Origin: Kofleriaceae bacterium
GTDB lineage: Bacteria; Myxococcota_A; Polyangia; Haliangiales; Haliangiaceae
Direction: 5' to 3'
NCBI GenBank assembly: GCA_965215005.1
Contig: CBDCCZ010000058.1
Span: 1-64,000, forward strand
DNA: 64,000 nt
In this document: one piece after another, positions 14,322 through 31,687 of the stretch
Layout: the number at the start of each line of letters is the position of its first letter
How positions within the stretch are numbered: position 1 is the first letter of the stretch
Position numbers and translations under genes: made by a program
The notes under the pieces: model-generated
What the model saw: the letters and a program-made list of their open reading frames with translations, nothing else
Database searches by the model: none
Told to the model about the DNA's origin: nothing

Positions 14322-15313
14322 AGAAGCAAGTCTTGGTCACCGGTGGAACCGGCTTTCTCGGCGAGCACGTGGTTCGCGAGCTTCTCGCTCGGCAGAGCTG
14401 GCACGTGCGCGTGCTCGCGCGGTCGCACTCGCCAGTGCTCGCCGACCTCGGCTGCGACGTGATGCGCGGCGACGTCGTGCGCGGCGATGCGCTCGCGGCT
14501 GCGCTCGAGGGCTGCAGCGCGGTCTTGCACCTGGCGGGGCTAGTGTCGCGCGATCCCAAAGACGGCCAGCGCATGATGCGCATCCACGTCGACGGCACGC
14601 GGCGAGTCTTCGAGCTCGCTGCCCAAGCCAGGGTAGGGCGCATCGTCGTCGCCTCCACCTCTGGCACCGTCGCAGTCTCAACGCGCGCCGAAGCCCTCGA
14701 CGAAACCGCTGGCTACGCCACCGAGGTGGTGGCGGGATGGCCGTACTACGCCTCGAAGATTTACCAAGAGAAGCTGGCGTTCGAGCTCGGCGCCACGCTC
14801 GGCATCGACACCGTGTGCGTCAACCCGAGCTTGCTCCTCGGCCCCGGCGACCGCCGGCTCTCGTCCACCGGCGACGTCTTGCGGTTTCTGCGCAAACAAA
14901 TTCCCGTCGTCCCCGAAGGCGGCGTCAACTTCGTCGACGTCCGCGATGCCGCCGCCGCTACCGTCGCAGCCCTAGAGCGCGGCCGCCCCGGTGAGCGTTA
15001 TCTCCTCGGCGGCCCCAACTGGACCATGCGCGAATTCTTCGGCCGCCTGTCCCGCGCCTCCAAAGTCACGCCCCCGTGGCTAAAACTGCCATCCTCCGTC
15101 TCCCGTCTCGGCGCCGGCGTCATCGAGCAGCTCTGGCGCGCCCGCGGCAAAGAGCCGCCCGTCGATCGCATCTCGGTCGAGATGAGCGAGCACTACTGGT
15201 ACCTCGACGCCAGCAAAGCGCGCCGCGAGCTCGACTTCGAGCCCCGCGACCCCGCCCTCACCCTCGCCGACACCGTCAAATACCTCCGCCAAACCATCGC
15301 CACCGACCTCTGA
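14318..15313 (+). CDS. NAD-dependent epimerase/dehydratase (extended SDR, ElbE-like)
   Basis: [18 protein letters not shown] (YxxxK), VNPS and FVDVRD. Overlaps the elbD-like stop. Confidence 0.85.
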
Positions 15314-15354
15314 GCCCCCGCCGCAGCTGCGTCCGCCACCACATCCGCGTCCAG

Positions 15355-15499
15355 AGCAGACCCCGTGCCGAGGGCCATCGCGCACAGGCAGTGGTCTCTG
15401 GAAACCATCTCGGTGCTCGCCGGTGACCTTGAGCAGGAGTCGTTGCTCCCGCTCGGTCAAGGTCCGTGGCGTGCGTGTCGAGTCGGCGTAGTTCGCCAT
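15355..15499 (-). pseudogene. Truncated, frameshifted tyrosine recombinase/integrase 5' fragment
   Basis: MANYADSTRTPRTLTEREQRLLLKVTGEHRDGF, then after a frameshift RDHCLCAMALGTG. This matches the P-x-x-L-T-x-x-E and RD...xTG(LR) box I of tyrosine recombinases. It breaks off before the catalytic Arg. AGGA lies upstream. Confidence 0.65.
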
Positions 15500-15564
15500 T
15501 CCTGGAGATGAAGGCGTGGTGACCCGAACCGCGCAAGGTCGAATCCACGTTCCACGAGGCGGGA

Positions 15565-15855
15565 TCAATCTCCAACCTTGCCCTCAATGTAGTCGGCCAG
15601 CGCTGCCCACCCACGTGCGCTGGTCGATCCGATCCGGGCCAGGGTCGTAGTCACAGCAAACGCGACTGGAAGCTGTTGGTCGTGCCCGGCTTCGGCCAAC
15701 CATGACCAGAGGTCGTCGCGTGTTCTGACGGCGTCATCTCTGCGGTTCTGAGCGAGGTACTCGTTCATAACATCGGACCAAGTTGCCGCGCCGCTGATGT
15801 CCCAGTCCTGATTGAAGTACCCAGCAAAGAACTGGTCGTCGGTCATCTCACGCAC
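15565..15855 (-). CDS. CdiI-type immunity protein (family partnering RNase A-like toxin tips); possibly internally frameshifted
   Basis: QFFAGYFNQDW matches the YF(H/N)QDW signature. An alternative frame near 15610-15655 reads CDYDPGPD..RTW, as expected for this family. Confidence 0.7.
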   Translation of the reverse strand: MREMTDDQFFAGYFNQDWDISGAATWSDVMNEYLAQNRRDDAVRTRDDLWSWLAEAGHDQQLPVAFAVTTTLARIGSTSARGWAALADYIEGKVGD

Positions 15856-16030
15856 TCATGGTGCTGAGATCCCCGTCAGCACGCGATAGGCACCGCTGCC
15901 GTTACCTTGCAGGACGACCCGAACTCGTGTTTTGTGAGTGCACGGCCGGCCTTTGTGAGCGAGCCACCCTTGTGCGGACTCAGCGCATCTTTGAACAGCG
16001 GATTTCCGAGTAGCCTTCTTGCGGCAGCGT
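15856..16030 (-). pseudogene. Chimeric orphan toxin-tip remnant (start of a BECR-like tip fused to the end of an RNase A-like tip)
   Basis: One frame reads AAARRLLGNPLFKDALSPHKGGSLTKAGRALTKH. Another frame continues RVRVVLQGNGSGAYRVLTG immediately before the CdiI-like gene. Confidence 0.6.
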
Positions 16031-16059
16031 AAGCTTGTGCGCGATCGGACCGGAGTCAT

Positions 16060-16536
16060 TCAGCTCCGGTCTTGCCAAAACGTGAGACAAAGCCCCTCTT
16101 CGTCAAATAGATCATGCGCGACCTCGAAGCGGTACAAACGATCAGGAAAGCGCGTACCCAGGGCGAAGCTCCAAAAGTACTGAAGTACGCGGCCAAATGC
16201 CTCGACGAGGTCCTCTTGGTGCACGGCCTGATCGGCACCCGCCAGGAAGAACTCGCCGAGGTTGAGGATGTTGTAGTACCGCTCGACCGTTTCGGGATCG
16301 CCGCCGAAAGGGGTGCTCAGTTGCTCCAGCTTGTCGAGGTCTTCTCCGACGTGTCGATCCCAGAACACGTGGCCCTTCACCTCGACGAACTCGGGTGCGA
16401 GGAAGCCTGCAAGCCCCAGCACCTGTTCAAGGCCGACGTGGTTCGCGACCCAGTCGCCAAACGTCGCTGCTGCTGTGCCTGAGGGGAACTGCTGCATGAC
16501 GCTGCCCGGTAGAATGCCGTCGTACGCCTTCATCAT
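16060..16536 (-). CDS. Putative immunity protein (acidic/aromatic, about 158 aa)
   Basis: Starts just after the stop of an orphan toxin tip. Sequence includes APEFVEVKGHVFW..ERYYN..W..RFPDR..LTFWQ. Position is typical of an immunity gene. Confidence 0.65.
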   Translation of the reverse strand: MMKAYDGILPGSVMQQFPSGTAAATFGDWVANHVGLEQVLGLAGFLAPEFVEVKGHVFWDRHVGEDLDKLEQLSTPFGGDPETVERYYNILNLGEFFLAGADQAVHQEDLVEAFGRVLQYFWSFALGTRFPDRLYRFEVAHDLFDEEGLCLTFWQDRS

Positions 16537-16537
16537 C

Positions 16538-16891
16538 TCACAGCCCCAGAGCATTCAGCACCGCCTGCGGCACTTCGTTGAACTTCAGGTTCGATCCGGT
16601 TCGTGCGAACCACTCTCCACTCGGCGCCTGGCTCCACTGGAACGCCTTGATGCGGCTCGCAGACACGTCATATAGCATCCTGCCTTCCGGCCCGTAGACG
16701 AGCGCGTGGCCGCCATCGGTCACGCTGTAACTGTTTGCTGGCCCGGTTAGTGCTCGTCCCGCCCCACCGCGGCCGACCGTCACGATTCCTTCGTTTCGCG
16801 TCAATCCGTGGAACGTTCTCAGGTCGAGCGTTCTGCCCGCTGTGTTCGTGATGAACCGAGCACCTTCACCTGCACCCCTTGCGGCGTAGTG
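16538..16891 (-). pseudogene. Orphan polymorphic toxin C-terminal tip without its own start
   Basis: The open frame begins directly after the previous stop: HYAARGAGEGARFITNTAGRTLDL..GHALVYGPEGRMLYDVSASRIK..NALGL*. It is followed by an immunity-like gene. Confidence 0.65.
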
Positions 16892-17089
16892 TTAGCCTGA
16901 ACGATTTGCGATCGCCACGAGCTGCTTCTGAAGCGTCTCCGCCGTGTGAGGCTCTACGCCCACGCGCGTCGAAAACTCCCACGCTTCTACTGCCTCAAGG
17001 GCTTCATTGAGCGCATTGATAAGCACGCTCAGCTCAAGTTGGCTCACCTCAAGAGTGATCACGTCACTGTCGTTCCTCATGGCTCTCAT
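16892..17089 (-). CDS. Small putative immunity protein (NALNE..EFSTRVG type)
   Basis: 65 aa helical protein starting 1 nt after the stop of a mini toxin remnant (TGA-C-ATG). Confidence 0.6.
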   Translation of the reverse strand: MRAMRNDSDVITLEVSQLELSVLINALNEALEAVEAWEFSTRVGVEPHTAETLQKQLVAIANRSG

Positions 17090-17090
17090 G

Positions 17091-17177
17091 TCAGCGCAAA
17101 CCTTCGAAGTAGGCACGCCCCCTCGTCGGCCGGAAAGCCGTCCCGAGGTCGCGCGCGTTCCTAGCAGCTGTTCGGGT
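17091..17177 (-). pseudogene. Internally deleted orphan toxin tip (28 codons)
   Basis: In frame directly after the SUKH gene stop: TRTAARNARDLGTAFRPTRGRAYFEGLR*. It has the AAR hinge at its start and a F-x-G-L-R end resembling the main toxin's FIGFLE end. Confidence 0.5.
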
Positions 17178-17618
17178 TTAAGACTGAGAGAGTCCGTAAC
17201 GATCTGCGAAATCTGTCCTCAAAACGCGCACGTACCAGTTTTCGAATGAATCGTACTCTTCGAGCTCCGCATACGTATCCTGATCGAGGACCACCCAAGT
17301 ATTGTCGCTGAGCCGAATTGCCGTCAGAACACTTCCAATGTGCACAATCAGGTATCGCCGGTCCATTCCTCGGCGGTAATGGAACTCATTCACGCTATCC
17401 ACGTCGTCGCCAAGCTGACGATCGCCGAATGGTCCCAGGATCGTCTCCGTCTCGAAGAGTTCTCCGCCGCCGGTATTCTGCCAGAATTGCAACAGTTCGT
17501 CGGGCAGTTCTAATCCACGCTGTCGAAGCCACTCATCCAGTCGTTCTCTTGCCACGGGGCCATTCCAAACAAACAACTCTGGTCGACAGCTCTGGTCCTG
17601 CTGCAACAGCGCGTTCAT
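17178..17618 (-). CDS. SMI1/KNR4 (SUKH) family immunity protein
   Basis: GPVARERLDEW..GLELPDELLQFWQNTGGGELF and C-terminal YDSFENW. Overlaps the Rhs toxin stop (ATGA). Confidence 0.8.
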   Translation of the reverse strand: MNALLQQDQSCRPELFVWNGPVARERLDEWLRQRGLELPDELLQFWQNTGGGELFETETILGPFGDRQLGDDVDSVNEFHYRRGMDRRYLIVHIGSVLTAIRLSDNTWVVLDQDTYAELEEYDSFENWYVRVLRTDFADRYGLSQS

Positions 17619-20600
17619 CGTGTTCTCAACGCTCCCTCCAAAAATCCAATAAAGCGACCGCTTCCAGCATCGATCCGAACACCTTGCCCAGCAGCATTGA
17701 ACACATCAATCGTCCGATTGCCGACTACCGTGCTCGTCGGGTTGGAAAGAATTCCGTTGATCAACCCTTCTGCATTCGCTTGCGTGGGCGCTACACCCTG
17801 GAAGACCGAGGTCGTCCTGTTTCTTTGAGCATGGCCAAGCTTTTTGGCTAGCGCGCGAGCACCAGCCGTCGTCTGTCCAGCTGCGCCTCGCGATGACGCC
17901 AGCGCCGCGTCTACAGTGCTCCGACTAAGCGCAGGCAGAAGCTTCGGTGCTGCCCTTGCGGCTTCTGCTGTCCCGCGGCCGCGGATGGTTCGGAGGGTGG
18001 CGCTGTCGAGGACTTCGACTGCGCGAGTGGGTGCCGCGCGCGGAAGGAATACGGTACCGGCGACTTGGGCGGCTCCCATCAACTCGAGGACGAGCTGAAA
18101 GCCCTCCATGGCTTCGAGCGCGCCGCCGATCTGGTTTTGGAAGTCCACTTCCACGATGCGCAGACCAGAAAGGACACCGGGCGCAGAGCTCTGATTCCAG
18201 CGGGTGGGAACAATGATGTTACCCGGCAATTGCTGATACCCGTAGCCACGGGGCGAGGTCCAGTCGACTTGCTCCGGGGTAATCGTATGGGAGTAGTCGG
18301 CGCCGTCGGTTCCCCGATAGGTTAAGTCATAGCCGCCTCCACTGCGTTTACGAGCGAGGCCTCGGAAGTGGCCTTGACTGAGGAACTGGGCTTGCCTCCA
18401 ATCGCCGTAGCTCGCGTTGGTTCTATAGAAGCTGACGCCGACTTTGTCGAGCCCCCAAGGATCTCGGTAGAGGAGTGGGGCGCTATCAACAAAGGCGTAG
18501 CGGTTGGAGCCACCTGCTAGACCGATGGGATCGCGGCTGAGAAAGCGACCCATGGCAGGCACATAGGTGCGGGCGCGCATGTGCACCAGCCCCAGCGTGG
18601 AGTCGGCGTGATGGCCTTGGAAACCGAACGGATTGCCGATGGCGCTTTCGGGGCGCCGCACACCCGCAGGGTCCAAAATGCGCGTTACGCCGTAGGCGGT
18701 GTAGTCGTACCACTCGAGTGGCTCACCGGTGGAGTCAGTGACGAGGAAGACGGAGCCAATACGGTCTTGGTGCAGATAGGCGTAACTAAGGCGATCGGTG
18801 ACGGCTATCAGTGGCTCATCGAGACCGCTCGACACGAATGCTGTTACAGATTCTCCACGCGCGACGATGGCGAGTTGGTCACCGTCGTATGCGTAGCGGA
18901 CTGGTTCGCCGCCTGGTGCACTCTCCTCCACCACGCGCCCGAGCGCGTCGTAGCGGTAGTATCTGCTGCCCTGCGGCCCGCTCACGCGAATGAGCTGACC
19001 GAATCCGTCGTAGGTATAGGAGGTGGTGCTTTCACTGCGTAGAGCGCCGCGACGATCGTAACGAAGAGGCAAGCCGAGGAAGCTCGTGTACTGATCGGCG
19101 GCACCGATGCCCGGCGTGGTGAAGCCTAGAGGCGATTCATACGAGGTCCAGTTGTGGCGGGCATCGTAGTCGTAGCGCCGGGTGTCGCTGCTATCGAGAT
19201 AACTCTGCACCGCCGCGTTGGCCTCGGCGACCGACGCCGCTGGCTCGACGAGCGTGGTATCGAGAGGCCGTGAGTGATAGCTCTCGGTGAGCAGACGGCC
19301 GCCGACATCGACCTCGTAGGCGACACTGTCGTTTATCCGCTCGCCACTCGTCAGGAGGCGAAACGCGTTCTCAACCCGCGGCGCGCCATCTGCTGCCGGT
19401 GCCCAATCGAATCCGGCGATAGTCTCACCGTTCGCTCGATCGATGGACAAACCGCTCAGACGACCGAGAGCATCATAGTGGTGCAGACGGGTTGTCTCAG
19501 CCGATACGCCGTCGATACGCGCCGTCGATGGACCAAGGCTCTCGTATTCGAACTTGACCTTGGCAGGCAGCTCACTGCCAACGAGCACCTCTACGAGGCG
19601 ACCGAGCGGGTCGTAGTCACGTCTAACGACGTTCCAGGCATAGCTCGACATTTGCGGTAGGCCTCGACCATCGTAGATGTGCTGGATTCCGCTCGCGACC
19701 AGCGAGTTGCTTTCCAAGTATCTGTTGCCGAGAGAGTCATACGTGAACCAAGTTATAATGTCCTCGACCCGCGCCATGGTGGTAAGGGCGTGCCGAGTGA
19801 AACTTCGGATCACGTCGATTGGCGCTCCTTGCGTGTAAAGCTTCGAGATACGTCCGAGCCCATCGTACTCGCGGTAGGTATGGATATCGCCGTCGGTGAT
19901 GAGCTGCGGCCGCGACGTCTCGAACCAATAGTCGACGTCTACGACTCGTCCATCTGGCTCGGTTAGCCGTCGAACGCGGCCGAGCGCGTCGTAGGAGTAT
20001 TGAGTATCGGCGGACCTAGCATTGGCAATGCTTGTACTCTGTGTGAGCCAGTCGTTGCGGCTCCATTCCAGCTCAACACGCTCAATCGACCCATTGCCAT
20101 AGTCAATCTCGCGCCAGCGCTCTCGATCGAAGGCATCGTATCCGACGGTGTGCGCGCCGCGACCAATGGCGGTGTGTGCGGTGAGTCGGCCGCGTGCGTC
20201 GTAGTCCCAGCTGGCAACTTCGACGTCGCGGTCGCCAACCCTGACCAACACCCGCGCCGGGGCTCCCCACTCTGTGAGCTCAGTCGTCTGCGCTAGCCAG
20301 CCGCTCGGAGTTGGGGCGGGCATGCTGCGGAAGGCGCGGCGGCCGCCGTCAGTATATGACGTGCTGATAACCGCGCCCGTCGCTAACTGTTGCCGGACGA
20401 GGCGCCCGGCTCCGTCGGCCTCATAGATAGTGGTGTAGCCCGCATCGTCGGTGACGCTAATGCGGCTGGCGGAAGGCTCGTAGGAGTATTGAGTTGTTGC
20501 TCGACCGTCGCCGATCGCTGCGCCCTGGGCGTTGAAGTGCCAGCGCGCGAGCGAGGTCAATCGTCCGAGCGTGTCGTAGGTGTAGTCGGCCGCTGCAGTC

Positions 20601-23600
20601 AAGTCGCTGGCACCCGGGACCGGACGTCCATAATCTTGCGGACCTCCGTCGTACTCACTCTCCCAGAGGACGTTGCCGAGCTCGTCGTACCCTCGCTGGA
20701 GTTGGGCCGAGCCAGTGGCTGCAACCGCAGCCCGGCCGAAGCCATCATGCCGCACCACGGTCGCGAGACCGTCCTGGTTCACGTAAATTGGCCAGCCATT
20801 GGCGTTGTACTGGACCGTCCGAAGCACTCCCTCGAGCAGTCCGGTAAAGCCTCCTTGGTAGCCCACGACGCACGCGTCGTCCCACGTAGCGCTGCTGACC
20901 TCGGCCACGGCGGCCACGGACGTCATACGCCCCTCGCCATCGTATGAGAACCGTGTTCGGTTGCCGTCTGGAGAGACTTGCTCGAGTAGCCTGCCGTCGG
21001 GCCCATGGCGGTAACAGCTCACGCGCTCTCGAGCGCTCAAGTCGAGCGCGGTTTCGGTGACTGTCTCGACGTTGCCGATGGCATCGTAGGTGACGGATCG
21101 CAGATTCGCGCCGCTTAAGGTCGTCGTCAGCTGACCATCGGGATCGAAGCCGAATCCTGTCGAATCCGTGCGGCCGTTTGCGGTGCGACTGTGAAGCTCC
21201 AATCGGCCGCCGCGCCACTGCCATCGCTCGAGCTCGCCCAGAGGTCCGCGATGGAGCGTGGGACGACCCGCTGCATCAGACTCTAGTTCGGAGATGACGG
21301 GAGAAGGACCATCGGCGTCCTCGATCATCGTTCGCAAGGTGCCAACGCCTTCGTCATAGGCGTAATAGGTTGAGGAACCGTCGGGATCTATCCGCCGTTC
21401 CGGCATGCCTCTGGCGGGGCCATCGCCGCCGACGAGCTGAAACTCTGTCTTGTCACCGAGCCCGCTCGTCACCTCAGTAACGTTGCCGCGCTCGTCGTAG
21501 CGGCGCTGCTCCAAGATCGCGTCGTCGTCGCCGGGACGGCGCGGATCGAAGATCTTCTGGAGCCGATGAGGAAAGCCTGTGTACGAATAGCGCCAGATAA
21601 TCGGCTCCCTCGAGCCCACGGCATTCCTCACCGGATATAACGAACTCTGCAGCAGATTACCTGCGGCGTCGTACTGCATGCAAACGCGGTCTTTGAGCGG
21701 CTGCTCGACCGCGGTAAGCTGTCCGAGTTGATCATAGTTATATGAGCGCACGGATCCGGTGCTGGCGTTGACGGTTCGCAGAGTCCGGCCCTTCTCATCG
21801 AAGTAGTATGTCCACGCGACGCCGTGGAAGTCGACGAGTACCGTCGCTCGCTCTGGCTTGGGTCCGGGTGCGAGAGGACCACGGCCTCGCCGTGCGCCGG
21901 TTCGCTCACCGAAGCACGATGGAACTTGTTCTTCGGGCTTATCCAGTGGCAGCTGCTCGAGTAGGTCGCGGAACCAATCATCCCAGCCGAACAGACTATG
22001 GAACACGAAAACAGGCACATCCAATTCATCTGCGTTCGCGGGCGGTCGCAAAAGCGGAGACACTGCGGCAGCATGAAGTGCGGTCAACAAGCTGGTAAGC
22101 TCGGCCGCACCACTGGGAGCCGTTTCCGCATCGTACCTCCCTCGTGTGTACGTTTCTCTTAGCACCATCGGTGCTCGCCGGGGCATGAGGCCGGACGCTT
22201 CGAAGTGATCGACGGCGGCGAAGGCAGAGGGGCCTTCGCTGAGATATCGTCTCTTGAGGCTTGCGTCATTTACTGCGGTGGCAAGCGGCGTGAGAACCAA
22301 CTCGCCACTGCATGCGTCGGTGGGCGTGAATCTATACTCTTCGTAATACTCAACAGAGAAGGGCTTCTTACACGAGCCCTCAGATACGTGGAGCACCCGC
22401 CGCGGCACGCCGCACATGTAGACTTGATTGCCAGTGGCCCCTACCAGCGACACGTGAGGCGCAGCCTCCATTACGTCAGTCAAACTCCCGTGACTGCCAG
22501 TCATGAGATAGCTGCCATCGCTGAGTGGCGCGATGTGTAGCGTGCCGGGCCCGGCGGTTACGGTGTACGATGAGGCGCTGGGTGCTACATCAGGCGGGGA
22601 AATTGATTTTACCGGCTGCAGCAACAAGCCATTGACGACCCTTCGTGTCCGCAAGAGCGTCGGCGGGATCGGAGCTTCGAAGGAGGAAGAGGAGGACTCC
22701 CCCGTTAGAAGAACACACGGCTCCTCAAACTCCAGCAGCGCATCGCCCCACGGCACAAACGTTCCTGCGGATGGCGTGCTCGTGAAATCGTTGCACGAGC
22801 CGCAGATGCTGACAGATTCGAACTCTTCGAGACTCTCGACAAGCTCGGAAGCCGGGCCATCGGTCGGCACACGAGTATATCCAGCTGCCTCGCTTCCCAA
22901 GTCACGATAGTGCATCGCGACCTGGTGATCGCCATACGTTTGACTGATGATCGCGTCGAAGCTCGGGTCTTCGAGGGCGGCGCCATACTCGTTGGTCAGA
23001 TAGAGGTCGCCATTGCCGTCGTAAACGCGCACTAGATTGAAATTTAGGTCCTTGAGGTACCCATACTTAGGTCCTTGTATCGGACCGCGGCCATGGGAGT
23101 CGGCGATGCAGCCGTCGACGCAGCCGGCCTCGCACGCACCCTGCAGGTCAAGGCTGTCGCAGTAGCTCCCGCATTCGCCAGTATGGCAAACATCATTGCA
23201 AGTAGTGTCGCAGGTGGGAACGCACGAAGAAGCGCAGGTATCGACGCACTGAGCGGTGCATTGCGATGGGCAGCTCGCGGTGAGGGTAGGAATGCAGCCC
23301 TCGAGAACAGCCACTTCGTCAACGGTGGAGGCGCAATTTTTTACCCTCTCGTAATCCTCCGTGCCCGGTGGAGGTGGCTGCCAGGTCGGGAACCCAAGCA
23401 AGTTCAAGCAGCCCTCGAGCGACCTACTGTCTGCGCAGTCGTTGCCGTTCGGAACACCGTAAAACGCGGCACGGCAATCCTCCTCGCAAGAGTGGCCTTC
23501 GTTGCAGCTACCAGCACCGCACTCATCACCTTCGCTACAACATAGTACGTGATTTTGATTGCATAGATCTAGCCAGCCATTGCGCGTGCGAGAGAAGTCG

Positions 23601-25528
23601 CAGCGCACATCGCAGAACAACCCAAAGCCGCATCCGATGCCGGTGCCGATGCACTCGAGCAAGTCGACGTTGACGTTCCACGGCATGATATGAATATCGA
23701 CGTAGGCTTCGGGGTACTCTCCAAATCCTGCTCGGTCTAAACATAGGCCTGTGCCCGCTGCACTGCTCGCGCCATCGACGTCGGCATTCTCATCGAAGCC
23801 AACCGAAACGCAACTAACAATGGCGTTGCAAGCATCCGATGGTCGCCCGCACGTCCTATTGCAGCTCTCGCAAATGTCATCGAAGCCGTTGGACCAGAGG
23901 GCGTCGCAGGTGCCACGGATATCGTTGCGATAGTCGCTCGATAAGCATTCTTGAGTGCATTGCTCCTCACACCCGACTTCTCCGCCTTCTCCGGCCCGGC
24001 AGGCGGTGTCACATTGTGCGTCGCATTCTTTGCCGCACTCTGTGCCGCACACACTGCATTCATTCATGCAGCTCCAGGTGGCCAGCTGCACGGCCTCGTC
24101 GCAGGCGCCGCCAGCGTCGCAGGAAGAAGAGGAGGGTGCGCAAGTCATCTCGCAGGCGGACCGCAGGGATCCCTCTGGCACCCAGTCACCTCCGGTTCGG
24201 GAGGCGCTGTAATCATATTCGTATGTCTCGGTTCGCTCGGTTGCGTCAGTTGCCTGTCTAAGGCCGCCATTGTCATCGTAGACGTAGGTTGCAAATAGCC
24301 CAGTGGAGACGTCAATCACCTGTTCCAGGCGATCGGCATCATCGTAATGATACTCAATGGTGCGGCCGACGGAATCGGTGACGGTTTGCAAGCGCCAGTC
24401 ATCGGCGCTGTTGGTGAGTTCCCACGCTAGCTGGAGGCCAACACCGTTGGCATCTACTAAGCTTACTAGCAGACCCCGGTCGTCGAAGTTCCGCACGACG
24501 CCATCCGGAGCGGACAACGCCCAGGTAAGCGCCTCCCCACGGCGTGTACCGCGCAGGATGAGAGGTATCCCGCTGGTGTTCTCGTAGAGAATCTCTCTTT
24601 CCTGTGCGATCGTCTCGCGGAACCGTAGCGTCGTTCCTTCGCCGGTTAAAAATAGAAGTTCGGGGCCGCAGGATGCAGAAGATTCGCGGTCGGATGCGGC
24701 AAGTACAGCGTGCTTGGCGGCTAGAAGGCTCCGCGGTCCGCGACCCGCCTCGGTTGCTCCGAGGTTTGGAAGTTGCTCCAATGGTCCTTGGGAAACGATG
24801 ACTGAGGGCTCTGGCAGTCGCAGGAGCCGCTGGTTATACGAGTGATCCCAGCCGCGGCCGAGGGGGCCATCATAGTCGATACGACTGCGATACATTCTTC
24901 GGTGTTCATAAGAGATACCGAAACCGGGCAAGGCGAGATCCGTGTGACGGATATAGAATTCTCCAGTCGCTGGATTGACGGGATCGACGAGATTGCTGGC
25001 GCTTTCGGTGTCATTGCTGGTTCCGTCTGCATTGGGAACGCGCGGCGGACCGGTATCCTGTGGCACCTCCACGCCCGCGAGTGCTTGGCGGACATCGGGT
25101 CGTTCACGACGAGCAGTCGCTTCTGCGCGAACCTGCGCGGGAAGGCTTTCCTGATTGTAGATTTCGTCGATATCGCGCGCGAAGCGGTCGAAGAACGCCT
25201 GAGTAGGCTCGGCGCCAGGCAGCCAGTCGAAGGTGATTTGAACGCCTCGCATCACCTCGCGAATGACCTCGAAAGCGACATTCGATCCTGGGCTCTCCAA
25301 GAGAACCGGCTTGATATTGCCGTCGTAGCCTTCAAATCCGCCGAGCGCTGGCTCCTCTAGGCGACAGAAGAGCTGCCCGGTGCTGACCCCGTCTCTAGTT
25401 GGCAGCTCCGTGCAAACCTGTTCCTGCGCGTAGGCTGTGCTCGCCGGCCAGAGCAGTACCGCGCCAGTGACGGCTATCAATGCAAGTAGCGTTCGTAACG
25501 ACGACAGAACCATCATGGACATCCTCAT
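17615..25528 (-). CDS. Giant secreted RHS/YD-repeat polymorphic toxin with Cys-rich insert and BECR-like RNase tip
   Basis: Signal peptide (..LLALIAVTGAVLLWPASTAYA|QE); DUF6531-like DPVNPATGEF..GPLGRGWDHSY; many YD repeats; core end RFLSRDPIG..NRYAF..PLLYRDPWGL (DPWGL at 18449-18463); ~277-aa C-terminus ending GQGVRIDAGSGRFIGFLE. Start uncertain (ATGs at 25513-25528). Confidence 0.9.
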   Translation of the reverse strand: MRMSMMVLSSLRTLLALIAVTGAVLLWPASTAYAQEQVCTELPTRDGVSTGQLFCRLEEPALGGFEGYDGNIKPVLLESPGSNVAFEVIREVMRGVQITFDWLPGAEPTQAFFDRFARDIDEIYNQESLPAQVRAEATARRERPDVRQALAGVEVPQDTGPPRVPNADGTSNDTESASNLVDPVNPATGEFYIRHTDLALPGFGISYEHRRMYRSRIDYDGPLGRGWDHSYNQRLLRLPEPSVIVSQGPLEQLPNLGATEAGRGPRSLLAAKHAVLAASDRESSASCGPELLFLTGEGTTLRFRETIAQEREILYENTSGIPLILRGTRRGEALTWALSAPDGVVRNFDDRGLLVSLVDANGVGLQLAWELTNSADDWRLQTVTDSVGRTIEYHYDDADRLEQVIDVSTGLFATYVYDDNGGLRQATDATERTETYEYDYSASRTGGDWVPEGSLRSACEMTCAPSSSSCDAGGACDEAVQLATWSCMNECSVCGTECGKECDAQCDTACRAGEGGEVGCEEQCTQECLSSDYRNDIRGTCDALWSNGFDDICESCNRTCGRPSDACNAIVSCVSVGFDENADVDGASSAAGTGLCLDRAGFGEYPEAYVDIHIMPWNVNVDLLECIGTGIGCGFGLFCDVRCDFSRTRNGWLDLCNQNHVLCCSEGDECGAGSCNEGHSCEEDCRAAFYGVPNGNDCADSRSLEGCLNLLGFPTWQPPPPGTEDYERVKNCASTVDEVAVLEGCIPTLTASCPSQCTAQCVDTCASSCVPTCDTTCNDVCHTGECGSYCDSLDLQGACEAGCVDGCIADSHGRGPIQGPKYGYLKDLNFNLVRVYDGNGDLYLTNEYGAALEDPSFDAIISQTYGDHQVAMHYRDLGSEAAGYTRVPTDGPASELVESLEEFESVSICGSCNDFTSTPSAGTFVPWGDALLEFEEPCVLLTGESSSSSFEAPIPPTLLRTRRVVNGLLLQPVKSISPPDVAPSASSYTVTAGPGTLHIAPLSDGSYLMTGSHGSLTDVMEAAPHVSLVGATGNQVYMCGVPRRVLHVSEGSCKKPFSVEYYEEYRFTPTDACSGELVLTPLATAVNDASLKRRYLSEGPSAFAAVDHFEASGLMPRRAPMVLRETYTRGRYDAETAPSGAAELTSLLTALHAAAVSPLLRPPANADELDVPVFVFHSLFGWDDWFRDLLEQLPLDKPEEQVPSCFGERTGARRGRGPLAPGPKPERATVLVDFHGVAWTYYFDEKGRTLRTVNASTGSVRSYNYDQLGQLTAVEQPLKDRVCMQYDAAGNLLQSSLYPVRNAVGSREPIIWRYSYTGFPHRLQKIFDPRRPGDDDAILEQRRYDERGNVTEVTSGLGDKTEFQLVGGDGPARGMPERRIDPDGSSTYYAYDEGVGTLRTMIEDADGPSPVISELESDAAGRPTLHRGPLGELERWQWRGGRLELHSRTANGRTDSTGFGFDPDGQLTTTLSGANLRSVTYDAIGNVETVTETALDLSARERVSCYRHGPDGRLLEQVSPDGNRTRFSYDGEGRMTSVAAVAEVSSATWDDACVVGYQGGFTGLLEGVLRTVQYNANGWPIYVNQDGLATVVRHDGFGRAAVAATGSAQLQRGYDELGNVLWESEYDGGPQDYGRPVPGASDLTAAADYTYDTLGRLTSLARWHFNAQGAAIGDGRATTQYSYEPSASRISVTDDAGYTTIYEADGAGRLVRQQLATGAVISTSYTDGGRRAFRSMPAPTPSGWLAQTTELTEWGAPARVLVRVGDRDVEVASWDYDARGRLTAHTAIGRGAHTVGYDAFDRERWREIDYGNGSIERVELEWSRNDWLTQSTSIANARSADTQYSYDALGRVRRLTEPDGRVVDVDYWFETSRPQLITDGDIHTYREYDGLGRISKLYTQGAPIDVIRSFTRHALTTMARVEDIITWFTYDSLGNRYLESNSLVASGIQHIYDGRGLPQMSSYAWNVVRRDYDPLGRLVEVLVGSELPAKVKFEYESLGPSTARIDGVSAETTRLHHYDALGRLSGLSIDRANGETIAGFDWAPAADGAPRVENAFRLLTSGERINDSVAYEVDVGGRLLTESYHSRPLDTTLVEPAASVAEANAAVQSYLDSSDTRRYDYDARHNWTSYESPLGFTTPGIGAADQYTSFLGLPLRYDRRGALRSESTTSYTYDGFGQLIRVSGPQGSRYYRYDALGRVVEESAPGGEPVRYAYDGDQLAIVARGESVTAFVSSGLDEPLIAVTDRLSYAYLHQDRIGSVFLVTDSTGEPLEWYDYTAYGVTRILDPAGVRRPESAIGNPFGFQGHHADSTLGLVHMRARTYVPAMGRFLSRDPIGLAGGSNRYAFVDSAPLLYRDPWGLDKVGVSFYRTNASYGDWRQAQFLSQGHFRGLARKRSGGGYDLTYRGTDGADYSHTITPEQVDWTSPRGYGYQQLPGNIIVPTRWNQSSAPGVLSGLRIVEVDFQNQIGGALEAMEGFQLVLELMGAAQVAGTVFLPRAAPTRAVEVLDSATLRTIRGRGTAEAARAAPKLLPALSRSTVDAALASSRGAAGQTTAGARALAKKLGHAQRNRTTSVFQGVAPTQANAEGLINGILSNPTSTVVGNRTIDVFNAAGQGVRIDAGSGRFIGFLEGALRTR

Positions 25529-25867
25529 CCCCCCGAGCAAGTCGCCCTCACGAGCGGTTCGCCTCACTTGCATAGGAAGATGCACGGCGATGAGCGCCGG
25601 CATCGAGCTCAACGAGCGCCTTCATTCGAGGAAGTCGGCGTCCGGTTTCTGCTTCTATAATCTACGGAATGCAGGGAGGACAAGTGCCGCGTGACGGTAG
25701 AAACGGGCAATTCTGTGAACAGATTGGCACTCAGCTCTTCCGACGACCCGACGAGTCTCTCATCGCTCATCGGGCGGCAGCTGTGCTGCAACGCGGCCAA
25801 GCGGGCACTCTGAGGCGAGCCTTGGCGCTCCTGGAAATCGCGGGGCGGACCGGCTAGGGTCGCGGCG

Positions 25868-26626
25868 ATGGCTACGCATCTGTCAGTCAATCTCAACAAG
25901 GTCGCGCTGCTACGCAACTCGCGCGGCGCTAGCAATCCGTCGCCGCAGCGCGCTGCCGAGACGGTGATCGCGGCGGGTGCGAGGGGGCTGACGCTGCACT
26001 GGCGGCAAGACAATCGTCACACGCGTGCGGAGGATGTGCGCGAGCTGCGCGCGCTGGCTGCCGACCACGGGGTCGAGCTCAATCTCGAGGGCGACACGCG
26101 CGCGGAGCTCATTGAGCTGGGGATCGAGCTGCGGGTCGATCAGCTCACGCTGGTGCCGGTCACGCCGGGCGAGATTACCAGCGATCACGGCTGGGACCTG
26201 CCTCGGCAGCACGCGCTGCTGGCGCCGCTGGTGGCGCGCGCCAAGGATGCGGGCATTCGCACCGCGATTTTCATGGATGCGGCGACCGAGACCATGGCCG
26301 CGGCGGCGGCGACGGGGGTGGATCGCATCGAGATCTACACCGAGCCGTATGCCGCGGCGTGGGGCACCGAGCGTCTCGATGCGGAGCTCGAGCGGGTCGC
26401 GGAGTGCGCCGCGGCGGCGACGGCGCTAGGCCTTGGCATCAATGCAGGGCACGACCTCGACCTGCACAACCTGCCGCGGCTGGTGCGCCGCGTGCCGACG
26501 CTCCTCGAGGTATCGATCGGCCATGCGCTGATCGCCGATGCGCTCTACCTTGGCCTCCATGAAGCCACGCAGCGCTACGTGCGCGCTTGCGCCGGCGACG
26601 ACGTGGAAGCACCGCTGACGTGCTGA
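25868..26626 (+). CDS. pdxJ: Pyridoxine 5'-phosphate synthase
   Basis: [38 protein letters not shown] and EVSIGHALI. Confidence 0.95.
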
Positions 26627-26737
26627 ACGCTGGCGATTGCCAAGAATCGTGACCATGCCCGAAGCAGCGGAGTTATGGCCAGAAATCTGGCCTTCCTTGC
26701 GCATCCTTGCAGATAGCGCGTCTCACGGGCGAGAGCT

Positions 26738-27406
26738 TTGCTGACCACAGCGCACCAGCCAAACGCGGCGTCTGCGCTGGCCGCAGCTGCGATGCTGGCG
26801 CTGTTGTGCGCGTGCGGCGGTGGCCAACGAGCGCAGCGAGATCCGTGCGCGGGTACGATCGAGCTGCGCGGCCAACACGATCTCGACGCGATGAGGTCGT
26901 GTCGGCGCGTCACCGGTGATCTCGTGCTCGCAACCGGCGCCGAGCTCGACCTCGCTCCGCTCGCCTCGCTGACCGCGATCGACGGCGCGCTGCGAATCGG
27001 CCCGACCTTGGCGATCACCGTCATCGACGGGCTGAGCGGCCTCGAGCGCGTCGGCGGCGACGTGGTCATCGAAGCCAACGGCTTGGTGACGAGCGGCTTT
27101 TTTCCGTCTCTGCGCCACGTCGGCGGCAGCATCGAGGTGCTGCACAACGGCTCGCTGGCCGGGTTGGCACTGCCGGCGCTGCGCCGCGTCGACGGCGATC
27201 TAACGTTCGTCGCCAATCCTGCGCTCGAGCGGCTCGACTTGCCTGCGCTGCGTCACCTCGGTGGCACAATGCGGCTGCGCGGCAACCGCGCCCTCTATAG
27301 TATCCGCGCCCCGGTGCTCGAGCATGTCGCGGCGGTGCGGGTCGATGAGAGCGGCTCAGTGCCGGCCGAGCAGCTCGAATGGTTGCGTGCGCGCGCGCCG
27401 AGATGA
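26738..27406 (+). CDS. Receptor L-domain (leucine-rich beta-helix) lipoprotein
   Basis: Lipobox LCA-C and repeated L-x-x-L-x-x-V-G-G-x-L-x-I-x-x-N units. Confidence 0.7.
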   Translation: MLTTAHQPNAASALAAAAMLALLCACGGGQRAQRDPCAGTIELRGQHDLDAMRSCRRVTGDLVLATGAELDLAPLASLTAIDGALRIGPTLAITVIDGLSGLERVGGDVVIEANGLVTSGFFPSLRHVGGSIEVLHNGSLAGLALPALRRVDGDLTFVANPALERLDLPALRHLGGTMRLRGNRALYSIRAPVLEHVAAVRVDESGSVPAEQLEWLRARAPR

Positions 27407-27505
27407 GCGCGCAGTCGGCGCTTGCGGCGTCACCCGTCGCGCTTCGGCAATATTGGCTGCCGCGCCCGGTGGGACCCGTCGCAGCGATGCGCTACGATCG
27501 CGGCG

Positions 27506-30274
27506 ATGTCGGAAACCGGCGATCTCGCCATCCTAGCCAGTAATCTCACGCTCATCGACGAGCTCTACGAACGCTTTCGCACCGAGCCTTCGAGCGTCGA
27601 TGCCAGCTGGCGAGAGCTCTTCTCCAACGGCGCCACGAGCATCCCGCTGCCGGCTCCGCGGCAGCGCAGCCCGAACGGCGCAACCGCCGCCGCACAGCCG
27701 GCGCCGAGTGCCGCGCAGGGGCTGGATATCTGGCCCCTGGTCAATGCCTATCGAGTTCGCGGTCACCTCGCCGCCACGCTCGACCCGCTCGACATGCTCG
27801 AGCGGCCACGCACGACCGAGCTCGAGCCCTCGACGTACGGCCTCAGCGAGGAGCACCTCGATCGCATCGTCGCCCCCGGTGGCATGTATGGCATTGGCCC
27901 AGCGCCGCTTCGCGACATTCTTGCCAAGCTGCAAAGGACCTACTGCCGCAGCATCGGTCTCGAGTTCATGCACATCTCGACGCCGGTCAAGAAGAAGTGG
28001 CTGGCCGAGCGCATGGAGACCCTGGTGGATCGCGAGCCGCTGCCGGCGAAGGTGCGTTGCCGGATGCTCGAGCTCCTGATCGCCGCCGAAGGCCTGGAGC
28101 GCTTCTGCCACGTCAAGTATCCCGGTACCAAGCGCTTCTCGCTCGAGGGCAGCGAGAGCATGATTGCGCTGCTCGACTTGGTGCTCACCCATGGCGCCCG
28201 CCTCGGCGCCATCGAGGCGGTCTTGGGCATGGCCCATCGCGGGCGCCTCAACGTCCTCACGCAGATCGTCGAGCGCAAGCCGCGCGATGTCTTCGCCGAC
28301 TTTGAAGACATCGAGCCCGAAGCAACGCTCGGCGGCGGCGACGTCAAATATCACCTCGGTTACTCGAGCGATCGCGTCGATCCCAACGGCCGCGAGATGC
28401 ACGTATCGCTCACCTTCAATCCCAGTCACCTGGAAGCCGTTGATCCAGTCATTCTCGGCCGCGTGCGCGCCAAGCAGCGCCGCCATGACGACTGGGAGCA
28501 CCGCCGGGTGCTCGGCGTGTTGATTCACGGCGACGCGGCGTTCGCTGGCCAAGGGCTGGTTCCCGAGACCCTCAACCTCACCAATTTGCACGGCTATCGC
28601 ACCGGCGGCACCGTTCACATCATCGTCAACAACCAGATCGGCTTCACCGCATCGCCCGTCGAAGCGCGCTCGACTCCCTACTGCACTGACATCGCCAAGA
28701 TGATTCAGTGCCCGATCTTTCACGTCAACGGCGAAGACCTCGATGCGGTCGCGCGCGTCGTCGAGATGGCGATGGAGTATCGCGCTACGTTTCAGAGCGA
28801 CGTGGTCATCGACATGTTCTGCTATCGCCGGTTCGGCCACAACGAGATGGACGAGCCGAGCTTCACGCAGCCGCAGATGTACGCGCGAATTCAGCGCAAG
28901 AAGTCGCCTGTGGAGCTCTACGCCGCGCAGCTCTTGCAGGAGCAGGTGGTCACGCAAGAGCAGGTCGACGGCATCGCCAGCGCGGTTCGCGAGGAGCTCG
29001 AGGGCGAGCTCGAGGTGGCGCGGCAAGCGAAGAAACGGCCGGCGATCGCAACCATGCGCGGGGTTTGGTCGAACTACTGCGGCGGCTTCGATAGCCAATG
29101 TCCAGAGGTCGACACCGGCGTGCCGCTCGAGCGAATCCACGCGATCACCGAGCGCATGGTCGAGCTGCCCGAAGGTTTCAAGCCACACCCGAAGATCAAG
29201 CGGCTGCTCACGCAACGCGCCGCCATGGGACGCGGTGAGCGCCCGATCGACTGGGGCATGGGCGAGCTGCTGGCCTACGGCAGCCTGATTTGGGACCGCA
29301 CCAACGTGCGCCTCACCGGGCAGGACTCGGCGCGCGGCACGTTTAGTCACCGTCACGCGATGCTCGCTGACATCGAGACCGGCACCGAGCACCTGCTCTT
29401 GGGCCGTCTGCACCACGAACAAGGCACTCTGCGCATCTACGACAGCCCGCTGTCCGAAGCCGGCGTGATGGGCTTTGAGTTCGGCTACTCGCTCGACTTC
29501 CCCGACGCATTGGTCATCTGGGAAGCGCAGTTTGGCGACTTCGCCAACGGTGCGCAGGTCATTCTCGACCAGTTCCTGTTTGCTTCGGAAGACAAGTGGC
29601 ACCGACTCTCGGGGCTGGTGCTGCTGTTGCCGCATGGCTTCGAAGGGCAGGGCCCGGAGCACTCATCGGCGCGCATCGAGCGCTTTTTACAAGCGTGCGC
29701 CGAAGACAACATTCAGGTCTGCCAACCGACCACGCCGGCGCAGATGTTTCATCTGCTGCGCCGGCAGATCGTGCGGCCGTATCGCAAGCCGCTCATCGTG
29801 TTTACGCCCAAGAGCCTGTTGCGGTTGCCTGAAGCCACCAGTGACGTGCTCGAGCTCACCGAGGGACGGTTCCAGCGGGTCCTCGATGATGCGACTGCGG
29901 AGCCAGAGCGAGTGGAGCAGGTGCTCTTGTGCACCGGCAAGATTTACTATGAGCTGGTGGCCGAGCGGCAGCGGCGCGAAGAGGCGCGGGTCGCCATCGT
30001 GCGCCTCGAGCAGCTCTATCCATGGGATCCCGCGCGTCTGGGCGCGGTGCTGCAGCGCTACCCCAAGGTGCGCGAGGTGGTGTGGGTGCAAGATGAGCCC
30101 GGTAACATGGGGGCGGTGACGTTTCTCGAAGGACGTCTTCGCGCGCTCATGGACGGCACGCCGCTGCGCCTGGTATCACGCCCTGACAGCGCCAGTCCTG
30201 CCACCGGATCGCACAAGGCGCATGTTCTCGAGCAGCAGTTGCTCATGCAAGAAGCTTTCGACGGAGATAAATAG
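27506..30274 (+). CDS. sucA: 2-oxoglutarate dehydrogenase E1
   Basis: KRFSLEG, GMAHRGRLN, GDVKYHLG, NPSHLE, HGDAAFAGQG, WEAQFGDF, GQGPEHSS and SASPATG. Confidence 0.97.
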   Translation: MSETGDLAILASNLTLIDELYERFRTEPSSVDASWRELFSNGATSIPLPAPRQRSPNGATAAAQPAPSAAQGLDIWPLVNAYRVRGHLAATLDPLDMLERPRTTELEPSTYGLSEEHLDRIVAPGGMYGIGPAPLRDILAKLQRTYCRSIGLEFMHISTPVKKKWLAERMETLVDREPLPAKVRCRMLELLIAAEGLERFCHVKYPGTKRFSLEGSESMIALLDLVLTHGARLGAIEAVLGMAHRGRLNVLTQIVERKPRDVFADFEDIEPEATLGGGDVKYHLGYSSDRVDPNGREMHVSLTFNPSHLEAVDPVILGRVRAKQRRHDDWEHRRVLGVLIHGDAAFAGQGLVPETLNLTNLHGYRTGGTVHIIVNNQIGFTASPVEARSTPYCTDIAKMIQCPIFHVNGEDLDAVARVVEMAMEYRATFQSDVVIDMFCYRRFGHNEMDEPSFTQPQMYARIQRKKSPVELYAAQLLQEQVVTQEQVDGIASAVREELEGELEVARQAKKRPAIATMRGVWSNYCGGFDSQCPEVDTGVPLERIHAITERMVELPEGFKPHPKIKRLLTQRAAMGRGERPIDWGMGELLAYGSLIWDRTNVRLTGQDSARGTFSHRHAMLADIETGTEHLLLGRLHHEQGTLRIYDSPLSEAGVMGFEFGYSLDFPDALVIWEAQFGDFANGAQVILDQFLFASEDKWHRLSGLVLLLPHGFEGQGPEHSSARIERFLQACAEDNIQVCQPTTPAQMFHLLRRQIVRPYRKPLIVFTPKSLLRLPEATSDVLELTEGRFQRVLDDATAEPERVEQVLLCTGKIYYELVAERQRREEARVAIVRLEQLYPWDPARLGAVLQRYPKVREVVWVQDEPGNMGAVTFLEGRLRALMDGTPLRLVSRPDSASPATGSHKAHVLEQQLLMQEAFDGDK

Positions 30275-30277
30275 GTC

Positions 30278-31687
30278 ATGGCCGAAGAGAAAGACCTCGT
30301 CGTTCCCGCGCTCGGAGAATCGATTACCGAGGCGGTAATCGGTCGCTGGCTCAAGAAAGTCGGCGAGAGCGTCGCCGCCGATGAGCCGGTGCTCGACCTC
30401 GAGACCGACAAAATCACCGTGCAGCTGCCATCACCGGTGGCAGGCGCGCTCGCCGAGCAGCGGTATCAAGAGGGCGACACCGTCCGAGTCGGCGATATCG
30501 TCGGTCAGGTATCCGAGGGTGAGCAGGCCAGTGGCGGCAAAGCGGCGCCACGAGAGGCCGCGGGGGAGGGTAGCTCGGACGAGGGCGGCGCGGCAGAGGC
30601 GGCGAAGGGCTCCTCGTCGCCGGCGAGCGCGCCAGCTGGCAAGGATGCGCCGCGAGACGCTGCCGCGGCAGCGCCAAAGGACGCTGCCAGCACTGCGGAG
30701 CAGTCCACCGGTTCCAACGGCGCGGCTGCCGCGCGGCATGACGCCGAGGCGCATCGGCGGCTCACGCCGGCGCAACGGCGGGAGGCGCGGCGCAGCGGTG
30801 AGCAGGAGGGGCAGCAGGGCGATGCGTCGGCTCCATCGGGGGCGCAAGCTGCGAAGAGCGGGCAATCCGCGAAGAGCGCGCAGACCGCGAAGAGCGGGCA
30901 ATCCGCGAAGAGCGCGCAGACCGCGAAGAGCGCGCAGACCGCGAAGAGCGGGCGATCCGCGAAGAGCGCGCAAGCTGCGGACGAGGGGGCGCTCGAGGAA
31001 ACGGTGGCGATGTCGCCGCTGCGCAAGCGCATTGCCGAGCGGCTGGTGCAGGCGCAGCACGAGACCGCTTCGCTCACCACCTTCAATGAAGTGGACATGG
31101 GCGCAATCATGGAGCTCCGTAGCCGCTTCAAAGAGGAGTTCAGCGACAAGCACGGGATCAAGCTCGGCTTCATGTCGTTCTTCGCCAAAGCGTGCGTGGC
31201 CGCTTGTAAGTTGTTCCCGGGCCTCAACGCCGAGATTCGCGGCGACTCCATCGTCTACAAAAAGCATTACGATTTCGGCGTCGCCGTGGGCACCGATCGC
31301 GGCCTCGTGGTTCCGGTGCTCCGTCACGTCGATGCGCTCAGCTTCGCCGAGATCGAAGCTGGCATCGCGGAGCTCGGGCGCAAGGCGCGCGACAACAAGC
31401 TCGTGCTCGATGACTTGGTCGGAGGCACCTTCACCATCACCAACGGCGGCATCTACGGCTCCATGCTGTCAACGCCGCTGCTGAACTATCCGCAAACCGG
31501 CATCCTTGGAATGCACAACATCGTGCAGCGGCCAATGGTGGTGGGCGACGCTGTCGAAGTTCGGCCGGTGATGTACATCGCGCTCACCTACGACCATCGC
31601 GTCGTCGATGGCCGTGAAGCGGTGCAGTACCTGGTGGCGGTCAAAGAGCGGCTTGAGTCGCCCGACCGCTTGCTGTTCGACCTGTAG
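30278..31687 (+). CDS. sucB: Dihydrolipoyllysine succinyltransferase (E2)
   Basis: Lipoyl motif LETDK, LTTFNEVDM, KLGFMSFF, FTITNGG and YDHRVVDG. Confidence 0.96.
   Translation: MAEEKDLVVPALGESITEAVIGRWLKKVGESVAADEPVLDLETDKITVQLPSPVAGALAEQRYQEGDTVRVGDIVGQVSEGEQASGGKAAPREAAGEGSSDEGGAAEAAKGSSSPASAPAGKDAPRDAAAAAPKDAASTAEQSTGSNGAAAARHDAEAHRRLTPAQRREARRSGEQEGQQGDASAPSGAQAAKSGQSAKSAQTAKSGQSAKSAQTAKSAQTAKSGRSAKSAQAADEGALEETVAMSPLRKRIAERLVQAQHETASLTTFNEVDMGAIMELRSRFKEEFSDKHGIKLGFMSFFAKACVAACKLFPGLNAEIRGDSIVYKKHYDFGVAVGTDRGLVVPVLRHVDALSFAEIEAGIAELGRKARDNKLVLDDLVGGTFTITNGGIYGSMLSTPLLNYPQTGILGMHNIVQRPMVVGDAVEVRPVMYIALTYDHRVVDGREAVQYLVAVKERLESPDRLLFDL
30851..30976 (+). repeat. In-frame 18-bp tandem repeat, 7 units, in the SucB linker
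   Basis: Units of GCGAAGAGCG(G/C)GC(A/G)... start at 30851, 30869, 30887, 30905, 30923, 30941 and 30959, encoding AKSGQS/AKSAQT variants. Confidence 0.95.

Follow-up and report, generated by a model that had tools for sequence, protein, structure and literature searches.

A Kofleriaceae Rhs polymorphic toxin carries within its YD-repeat shell a Cys-rich insert which very probably folds as an antiparallel, disulfide-stapled stalk, a structure deduced from sequence patterns and modelling rather than from bonds seen chemically. The insert is real, conserved and apparently undescribed, and on the models it would be an unusually long disulfide-laddered hairpin. An earlier note on this DNA had proposed that two CxxxC helices pair as a ladder and project a head domain, perhaps for target recognition, from the Rhs cocoon. 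The structural half of that reading is well supported, while its functional half is plausible.

The Rhs gene and its Cys-rich insert

The window analysed here is a stretch of 64,000 nucleotides from a Kofleriaceae bacterium (GCA_965215005.1, contig CBDCCZ010000058.1, positions 1 to 64,000, forward strand). The toxin locus in it comprises the following features.

15565..17200, minus strand: probable orphan toxin-fragment and immunity array, its last gene CdiI_2
17178..17618, minus strand: predicted immunity gene, SMI1/KNR4 (SUKH); Pfam 25.9 bits, cut-off 25.4
17615..25612, minus strand: Rhs polymorphic-toxin gene, 2665 aa from TTG; Pfam and NCBIfam matches
17615..18448, minus strand: C-terminal cargo, 277 aa, an unclassified predicted toxin following the self-cleavage motif
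18449..21847, minus strand: main YD shell and Rhs core; RHS_repeat, RHS_core, and TIGR03696 at aa 2316–2388
21848..22900, minus strand: second non-YD insert, aa 905–1255, about 350 aa; optional in the family
24821..24985, minus strand: DUF6531, N-terminal plug of Rhs shells, aa 210–264; Pfam E 3e-17
25427..25516, minus strand: predicted Sec signal peptide, about aa 33–62; hydrophobic stretch with an Ala-x-Ala end

Judged by its shell repeats, core motif, variable cargo and adjacent immunity gene, the protein is a YD-shell polymorphic toxin. RHS_repeat was matched with E 5e-45 and YD_repeat_2x was also matched (Pfam, NCBIfam); the Rhs core family TIGR03696 scored 70 bits against a cut-off of 32.5, and the self-cleavage motif DPxG-x18-DPxGL, read from the sequence, is intact at the shell end. 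DUF6531 is described as the plug of Rhs shells (PMC10684867). Translation probably starts at aa 29–34, and the database protein begins at aa 33. A similar hydrophobic N-terminal stretch was found, by a crude hydropathy rule and not a trained predictor, in 42 of the 47 homologues with 100–400 residues ahead of DUF6531 (5 of 52 rows lay outside that range).

The cargo gave no match in NCBIfam or PDB sequence searches. The SMI1/KNR4 gene lies directly downstream and overlaps the toxin stop codon; the CdiI_2 gene lies at 15565–15855 (Pfam E 6e-8), and the other small frames between have no family match. A toxin followed by its immunity gene, small frames and a CdiI_2 gene is the usual layout of polymorphic toxin loci. 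A small frame at 15879–16055 (minus strand) carries a short motif like one in the cargo, and a short minus-strand frame at about 15400–15500, at the edge of a lower-GC island beside a NAD-dependent epimerase-like gene, appears to resemble the start of a tyrosine-recombinase gene. Elsewhere in the window, the linker of a dihydrolipoamide succinyltransferase-like gene (30278–31687, plus strand) contains short peptides repeated in tandem, and AT skew is strong near 30001–31000. Rfam gave no match over positions 14000–28000.

Within the shell, the insert and its parts are arranged as follows.

22913..23047, minus strand: short YD-strand run, aa 856–900, continuing the shell sheet; from structural alignment of the model
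23108..24154, minus strand: Cys-rich insert (stalk), aa 487–835, 349 aa, 49 Cys; from the Cys count
23159..23296, minus strand: C-terminal ladder arm, aa 773–818, 11 Cys; from the outward-in Cys count
23297..23905, minus strand: distal part, aa 570–772, 20 Cys; second tier, variable loops and apex
23531..23713, minus strand: apex helical hairpin, aa 634–694, with a Gly/aromatic turn; from model geometry and composition
23906..24070, minus strand: N-terminal ladder arm, aa 515–569, 11 Cys; from the outward-in Cys count
24668..24670, minus strand: shell C315, candidate partner of insert C498; from co-occurrence with C498

The protein contains 62 cysteines, 49 of them in the insert and 13 in the remaining 2316 residues; seven other Rhs-like ORFs in the genome have 6–26 each in 1899–2440 residues. 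The earlier note's estimate of a YD interruption of about 350 residues with about 49 Cys is confirmed, and the two CxxxC runs which it quoted from the insert ends are both present exactly as given. A CxxxCxxC pattern occurs at 515–522. The rough mirror symmetry that it had remarked on holds in the equal Cys content of the two arms. Since none of the 25 longest inverted DNA repeats, from a list of 31 pairs, joins the arms, the symmetry appears to belong to the protein, and DNA symmetry was rejected as its origin. YD repeats do resume after the insert, as had been stated, but only for about 45 residues, beyond which the second non-YD stretch begins.

This second insert is shorter than 100 residues in 14 of 52 long homologues and 552–575 residues long in two. 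It contains conserved cysteines (940, 1081, 1101 and 1233) and gave no match in Pfam, NCBIfam, the ESM Atlas or PDB sequences. Two homologues, P0048 and P0050, have about 200 extra residues here, beta-rich in look. Three shell cysteines (aa 1311, 1533 and 1581), unusual for Rhs shells, are kept in 51 of the 52 long homologues; they would be consistent with an oxidising environment.

Probable pairing between the two arms

Homologues were collected with aa 405–910 as query, which recovered relatives at about 30–50% identity. After loci were added and 11 duplicates removed, the set held 69 complete non-redundant inserts; P0097 and P0121, which failed the automatic N-anchor, were excluded, as were rows lacking either anchor. 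The insert occupies the same shell position in all 69 and ranges in length from about 160 to 410 residues.

The number of cysteines in aa 506–575 equals that in aa 768–822 in 61 of the 69 inserts, at 6–11 per arm, and differs in eight. Shuffling 20000 times gave a mean of 27 equal rows and a maximum of 42; missing rungs, compared by raw spacings over the 61 equal rows, coincide 15 times in the antiparallel register against 4 in the parallel one, with a null mean of 7.2 and a maximum of 14 in 5000, although both nulls ignore kinship and so overstate significance. The distal cysteine count is even in 65 of 69 inserts and the whole-insert count odd in 59, the latter dividing according to C498: 58 of 61 inserts with it are odd, and 7 of 8 without it are even. 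Of 44 rows with C498, 42 also have shell C315, as does one of six without it (one exception is truncated). In P0048 both C315 and C498 are missing while the other cysteines outside the insert remain, so that C315 can be told apart from C940, C1081 and C1101; the correlation of these three tracks loss of the second insert. C498 thus probably pairs with C315.

Covariation between the two Cys runs, suggested by the earlier note as a check, places co-loss on the mirror diagonal. Over 65 rows (the four most divergent were left out here and for non-Cys covariation), phi was 0.86 for 519–814, 0.53 for 522–809, 0.55 for 526–805, 0.70 for 530–801, 0.84 for 534–797, 0.78 for 538–793, 0.49 for 548–789 and 0.89 for 552–785. 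In the same rows 515–818 and 556–781 gave no co-loss signal, and C569 and C773 are invariant. Distal co-loss pairs include 588–692, 703–726 and 735–760, with several partners possible for 595, 601, 624, 654 and 671. A map of the predicted bonds can be drawn from the way in which cysteine pairs come and go among natural inserts. Covariation at non-Cys positions shows a modest enrichment along the antidiagonal of the co-loss pairs (11 of the top 20 pairs, 6.5 expected).

Relatedness was addressed with a FastTree tree of 50 rows built from shell columns. On this tree C519 and C814 each change five times, always together, and agree in all 50 rows; a sign test on their four independent pairs gave p 0.125, there being too few events for significance at any one rung. 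Changes at 522 and 809 agree in about three of five cases. The total Cys count changes 32 times on the tree and its parity six times.

An AlphaFold2 model of aa 405–945 (24 rows) had a mean pLDDT of 79 and a pTM of 0.47, with helices at aa 505–540, 548–556, 559–589 and 773–808; the first and last of these had pLDDT near or above 90, and the centre was weak (44–60). The strands flanking the insert align to a continuous stretch of 102 residues in a solved Rhs shell (8qjb_A 670–771; Z 12.1, rmsd 2.1, 101 aligned), which indicates that the insert leaves the sheet as a loop. Numerous two-helix hairpins could be superposed on model residues 101–417, the span of both arms, and this suggests antiparallel arms in about the register given by co-loss, with the geometry read from alignment ranges rather than atomic coordinates. 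The long helices thus align as an antiparallel hairpin would. A separate model of aa 571–778 (29 rows; pLDDT 85, pTM 0.65) is almost entirely helical, with an end hairpin at aa 634–694, and matches only generic hairpins (best Z 5.8, rmsd 8.2, 70 aligned).

The insert matched no NCBIfam family and nothing above cut-off in Pfam, where a sub-threshold zf-NF-X1 match had E 0.055. Family searches across 13 members of one homologue set (A2) and searches of phage genomes gave no match, nor did PDB sequences (best E 0.33); the ESM Atlas, where recognition is low, was blank. At the level of fold, Foldseek against PDB and BFVD found no match and a wide VIA search only generic hairpins, blanks which leave room for a relative of the insert. 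Searches of the open full-text literature gave no paper that describes the insert in its title or at the beginning of its abstract, although architectures of this kind might be tabulated in supplements, for example to PMC3482391 and PMC13018210. Elsewhere in the source genome, two apparent secreted proteins or lipoproteins, C54:159071–160369 and C12:22134–24377 (both plus strand), carry Gly-rich CxxxC runs, are similar in composition to the ladder arms and may also be laddered hairpins. Homology between the insert and the genome's other CxxxC proteins was not borne out, the single match (E 1e-5, 26 bits, 68 bias) being read as compositional.

Equal arm counts, mirror co-loss, parity and model geometry together give strong support to an antiparallel ladder. 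The two outcomes which the earlier note had set against it, independent small repeats and an already described domain, sit badly with the cross-arm co-loss and the lack of a family match.

Orientation, apex and possible roles of the stalk

The proposed mechanism begins with Sec export into an oxidising compartment, to which the signal-like N-terminus and VKOR genes point; the source genome (93% complete) has three VKOR matches and three secretins. There the insert would fold as a nested antiparallel hairpin with a base, an 11-rung ladder, a second tier and an apex. Residues 487, 491 and 504 would pair at the base with 835, 831 and 827, and C498 would pin the base to shell C315. The predicted rungs are 515–818, 519–814, 522–809, 526–805, 530–801, 534–797, 538–793, 548–789, 552–785, 556–781 and 569–773; eight follow from co-loss, while 515–818, 556–781, 569–773 and the base are placed by order only. 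The stalk would loop from the sheet near the plug end and point outward, its continuity with the sheet coming from the model and its direction from its size. The Tse5 cavity is given as about 32,000 cubic Å, enough for a 16-kDa cargo (PMC10684867); such a cavity has no room for a rod of 349 residues, hence the outward direction. The nested fold and the outward loop-out, taken together, are proposed with high confidence. If extended, the rod would measure roughly 12–17 nm, as estimated from modelled helix lengths.

The acidic rod would then present an aromatic or amphipathic apex and dock on the envelope of a target cell. Finally, the core would cleave itself and release the cargo, with the adjoining SUKH protein protecting the producer; self-cleavage of the core, cargo release and protection by immunity proteins are established Rhs biology. 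The chances are about even that the whole chain, docking included, is right. On this reading, the most parsimonious one, a rigid, acidic rod of variable length would bring a sticky apex into contact with a target envelope.

The apex is the most hydrophobic region of the insert, with 10.8% F+W compared with about 2% in the arms, and in the model it folds into a helical hairpin whose turn is aromatic. F/W/Y content is higher in the apex than in the arms in all 14 scorable short variants (2 of 16 were too short) and in 50 of 53 long variants. Mean hydrophobicity over an 18-residue window reaches 0.5 or higher in 33 of 52 long apices and in none of 53 arms. The apex varies in length; 16 of the 69 homologues have a short one, and a few have almost none. 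In 68 of 69 the insert carries a net negative charge (−44 here), which makes simple attachment to anionic surfaces less likely. The earlier note had suggested comparing the variability of the central head among homologues; a hypervariable head was not supported, as non-Cys identity is 0.217 in the apex and 0.183 in the arms (0.47 in the shell) and the apex is the lower of the two in 15 of 35 pairs. This lack of extra divergence, the short apices and the net charge all weigh against a specific receptor-binding head.

The same stalk might instead tether or display the capsule on the producer, its rod serving as a spacer and its apex lodged in the outer membrane or matrix of that cell. This is unlikely, if not easily set aside: the apex is hydrophobic without being specifically hypervariable, and neither the protein nor the 18 homologues scanned contain a lipoprotein or wall-binding domain, so that another anchor may be needed. 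The very short apex of several homologues would be odd for an essential anchor, and only 33 of the 52 long apices reach the hydrophobicity given above.

A bolder form of the docking model has the protein found a stand-alone Rhs class with a length-tunable laddered needle, whose apex, alone or as an oligomer, would enter the target envelope and drive cargo entry with no need of a T6SS, of a two-partner filament or of a Tc A subunit; we consider this a doubtful proposition.

It is improbable that the stalk is a latch which braces the plug end through C498–C315 and opens the capsule when contact or reduction shifts it. The insert lies about 220 residues past the DUF6531 plug, a co-varying Cys pair ties it to the shell, and a disulfide-bearing wedge insert of mosquito SGS1 is proposed to act on reduction (PMC9935623). 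C498 is absent from 8 of 69 inserts, however, and a latch would need neither so long and variable a rod nor an aromatic apex.

Lower still in probability is a bundle of stalks from several molecules forming a helical needle that penetrates membranes, the equivalent within a single gene of the separate channel subunit of Tc toxins. The long hairpin and hydrophobic apex would suit it, as would cargoes that include cytoplasm-acting enzymes (Colicin_D) and, on a crude ORF filter, the absence of an evident Tc A/B partner gene in the window or at seven loci. Arm surfaces so poorly conserved relative to the shell and so acidic would nevertheless make a poor oligomer interface, which the spread of insert lengths also fits badly.

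Least probable by far is binding of metal or Fe-S clusters by the cysteines, or their arrangement in small, independent repeats with unpaired arms: the CxxxCxxC pattern, the weak zf-NF-X1 match and the CxxxC runs of two unrelated proteins of the genome are in keeping with it, whereas cysteines disappear as single pairs across the arms, the N-terminus is signal-like, and C519 and C522 go missing independently of each other, each together with a far-arm Cys about 290 residues away, a pattern which led to rejection of an Fe-S or Zn cluster motif.

Relatives, distribution and significance

A search with shell residues 1255–1800 only provided an independent test of the link between insert and shell. 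Among the best 120 of 209 matches, 119 were non-self: the first 11 all bear the insert, the 12th contains a single Cys, the 13th carries a version with 19 Cys, and none of the other 106 reaches 14 Cys within a 350-residue window. Insert carriers thus head the list, and the insert marks one shell clade, made up of Rhs polymorphic toxins that bear a signal peptide. The five carriers with names are MAGs of Kofleriaceae or Myxococcales. The insert is rare, with long matches in two genomes among 60 relatives; among 400 genomes of the phylum, with two candidates scored per genome, two matches spanned it.

Cargoes differ within the clade: Colicin_D, Peptidase_C39, Gln_amidase and Hint_2 occur in separate homologues, and 46 extracted tails (one mis-cut) gave only seven similar pairs. 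In P0090, P0101 and P0176 long Cys-poor segments replace the distal part while base and ladder are kept, which suggests that the stalk can display unrelated modules. P0066 has about 1240 extra N-terminal residues, Kelch propellers included, before its stalk-bearing shell, and genome G045 holds two divergent stalk-bearing Rhs copies on contigs C493 and C655.

T6SS Rhs effectors (Tse5, RhsA, Rhs1, RhsP and Tse15) have in common with the stalk protein the DUF6531 plug, YD shell, self-cleavage motif and variable cargo with immunity. They differ in having PAAR where the stalk protein has a signal peptide, and their cargoes are of about 15–16 kDa compared with 277 residues here. Delivery by a T6SS was rejected: PAAR was found neither in the protein nor in the 18 homologues scanned, the N-terminus is signal-like, and VipB had no match in the 93%-complete source genome, whose one PAAR gene is on another contig. 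Sec-exported toxins of the Rhs/WapA type share the signal peptide, YD repeats and variable C-terminal toxin, and the searches run turned up no such insert among them. RHS toxins exported by the T2SS are tabulated in PMC3482391.

There is precedent for functional inserts in such shells. In Tse5, helical protrusions of the shell have been modelled binding membrane (PMC10684867), although they are of 27–42 residues and the stalk insert has 349 with 49 Cys. In mosquito SGS1, domains inserted in the YD repeats decorate the shell exterior as proposed receptor domains, one of them with conserved disulfides (PMC9935623); unlike the laddered helical rod proposed here, the named inserts of this eukaryotic protein comprise a propeller, a wedge and two Ig-like sandwiches. 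By analogy, the stalk protein may work like either. The ladder shares its local principle, with no homology claimed, with the alpha-hairpinins, plant CX3C-loop-CX3C peptides whose two antiparallel helices are held by disulfides (PMC11591084). Identity with these was rejected, since they are described as short peptides with four or six cysteines and a loop of 4–20 residues (PMC11591084), closed by two or three bonds, while the stalk would have 11 rungs and further tiers.

Bacterial teneurin-like proteins (TLPs) have Sec-type signals, are common in Myxococcota and hold a polymorphic toxin in a YD shell; they are defined by an FN-plug, NHL and YD shell (PMC13018210). The stalk family differs in its DUF6531 plug near residue 210 and lacks an NHL match, and teneurin-like identity was rejected on these grounds together with a TEN_YD-shell score of 20 bits against 50. 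How TLPs reach and enter their targets without an injection machine is stated to be unresolved (PMC13018210). The stalk clade offers a discrete and deletable candidate part, complete with its natural length variants, which makes the delivery question directly testable. The stalk may be the route by which the capsule reaches a target cell without an injection machine.
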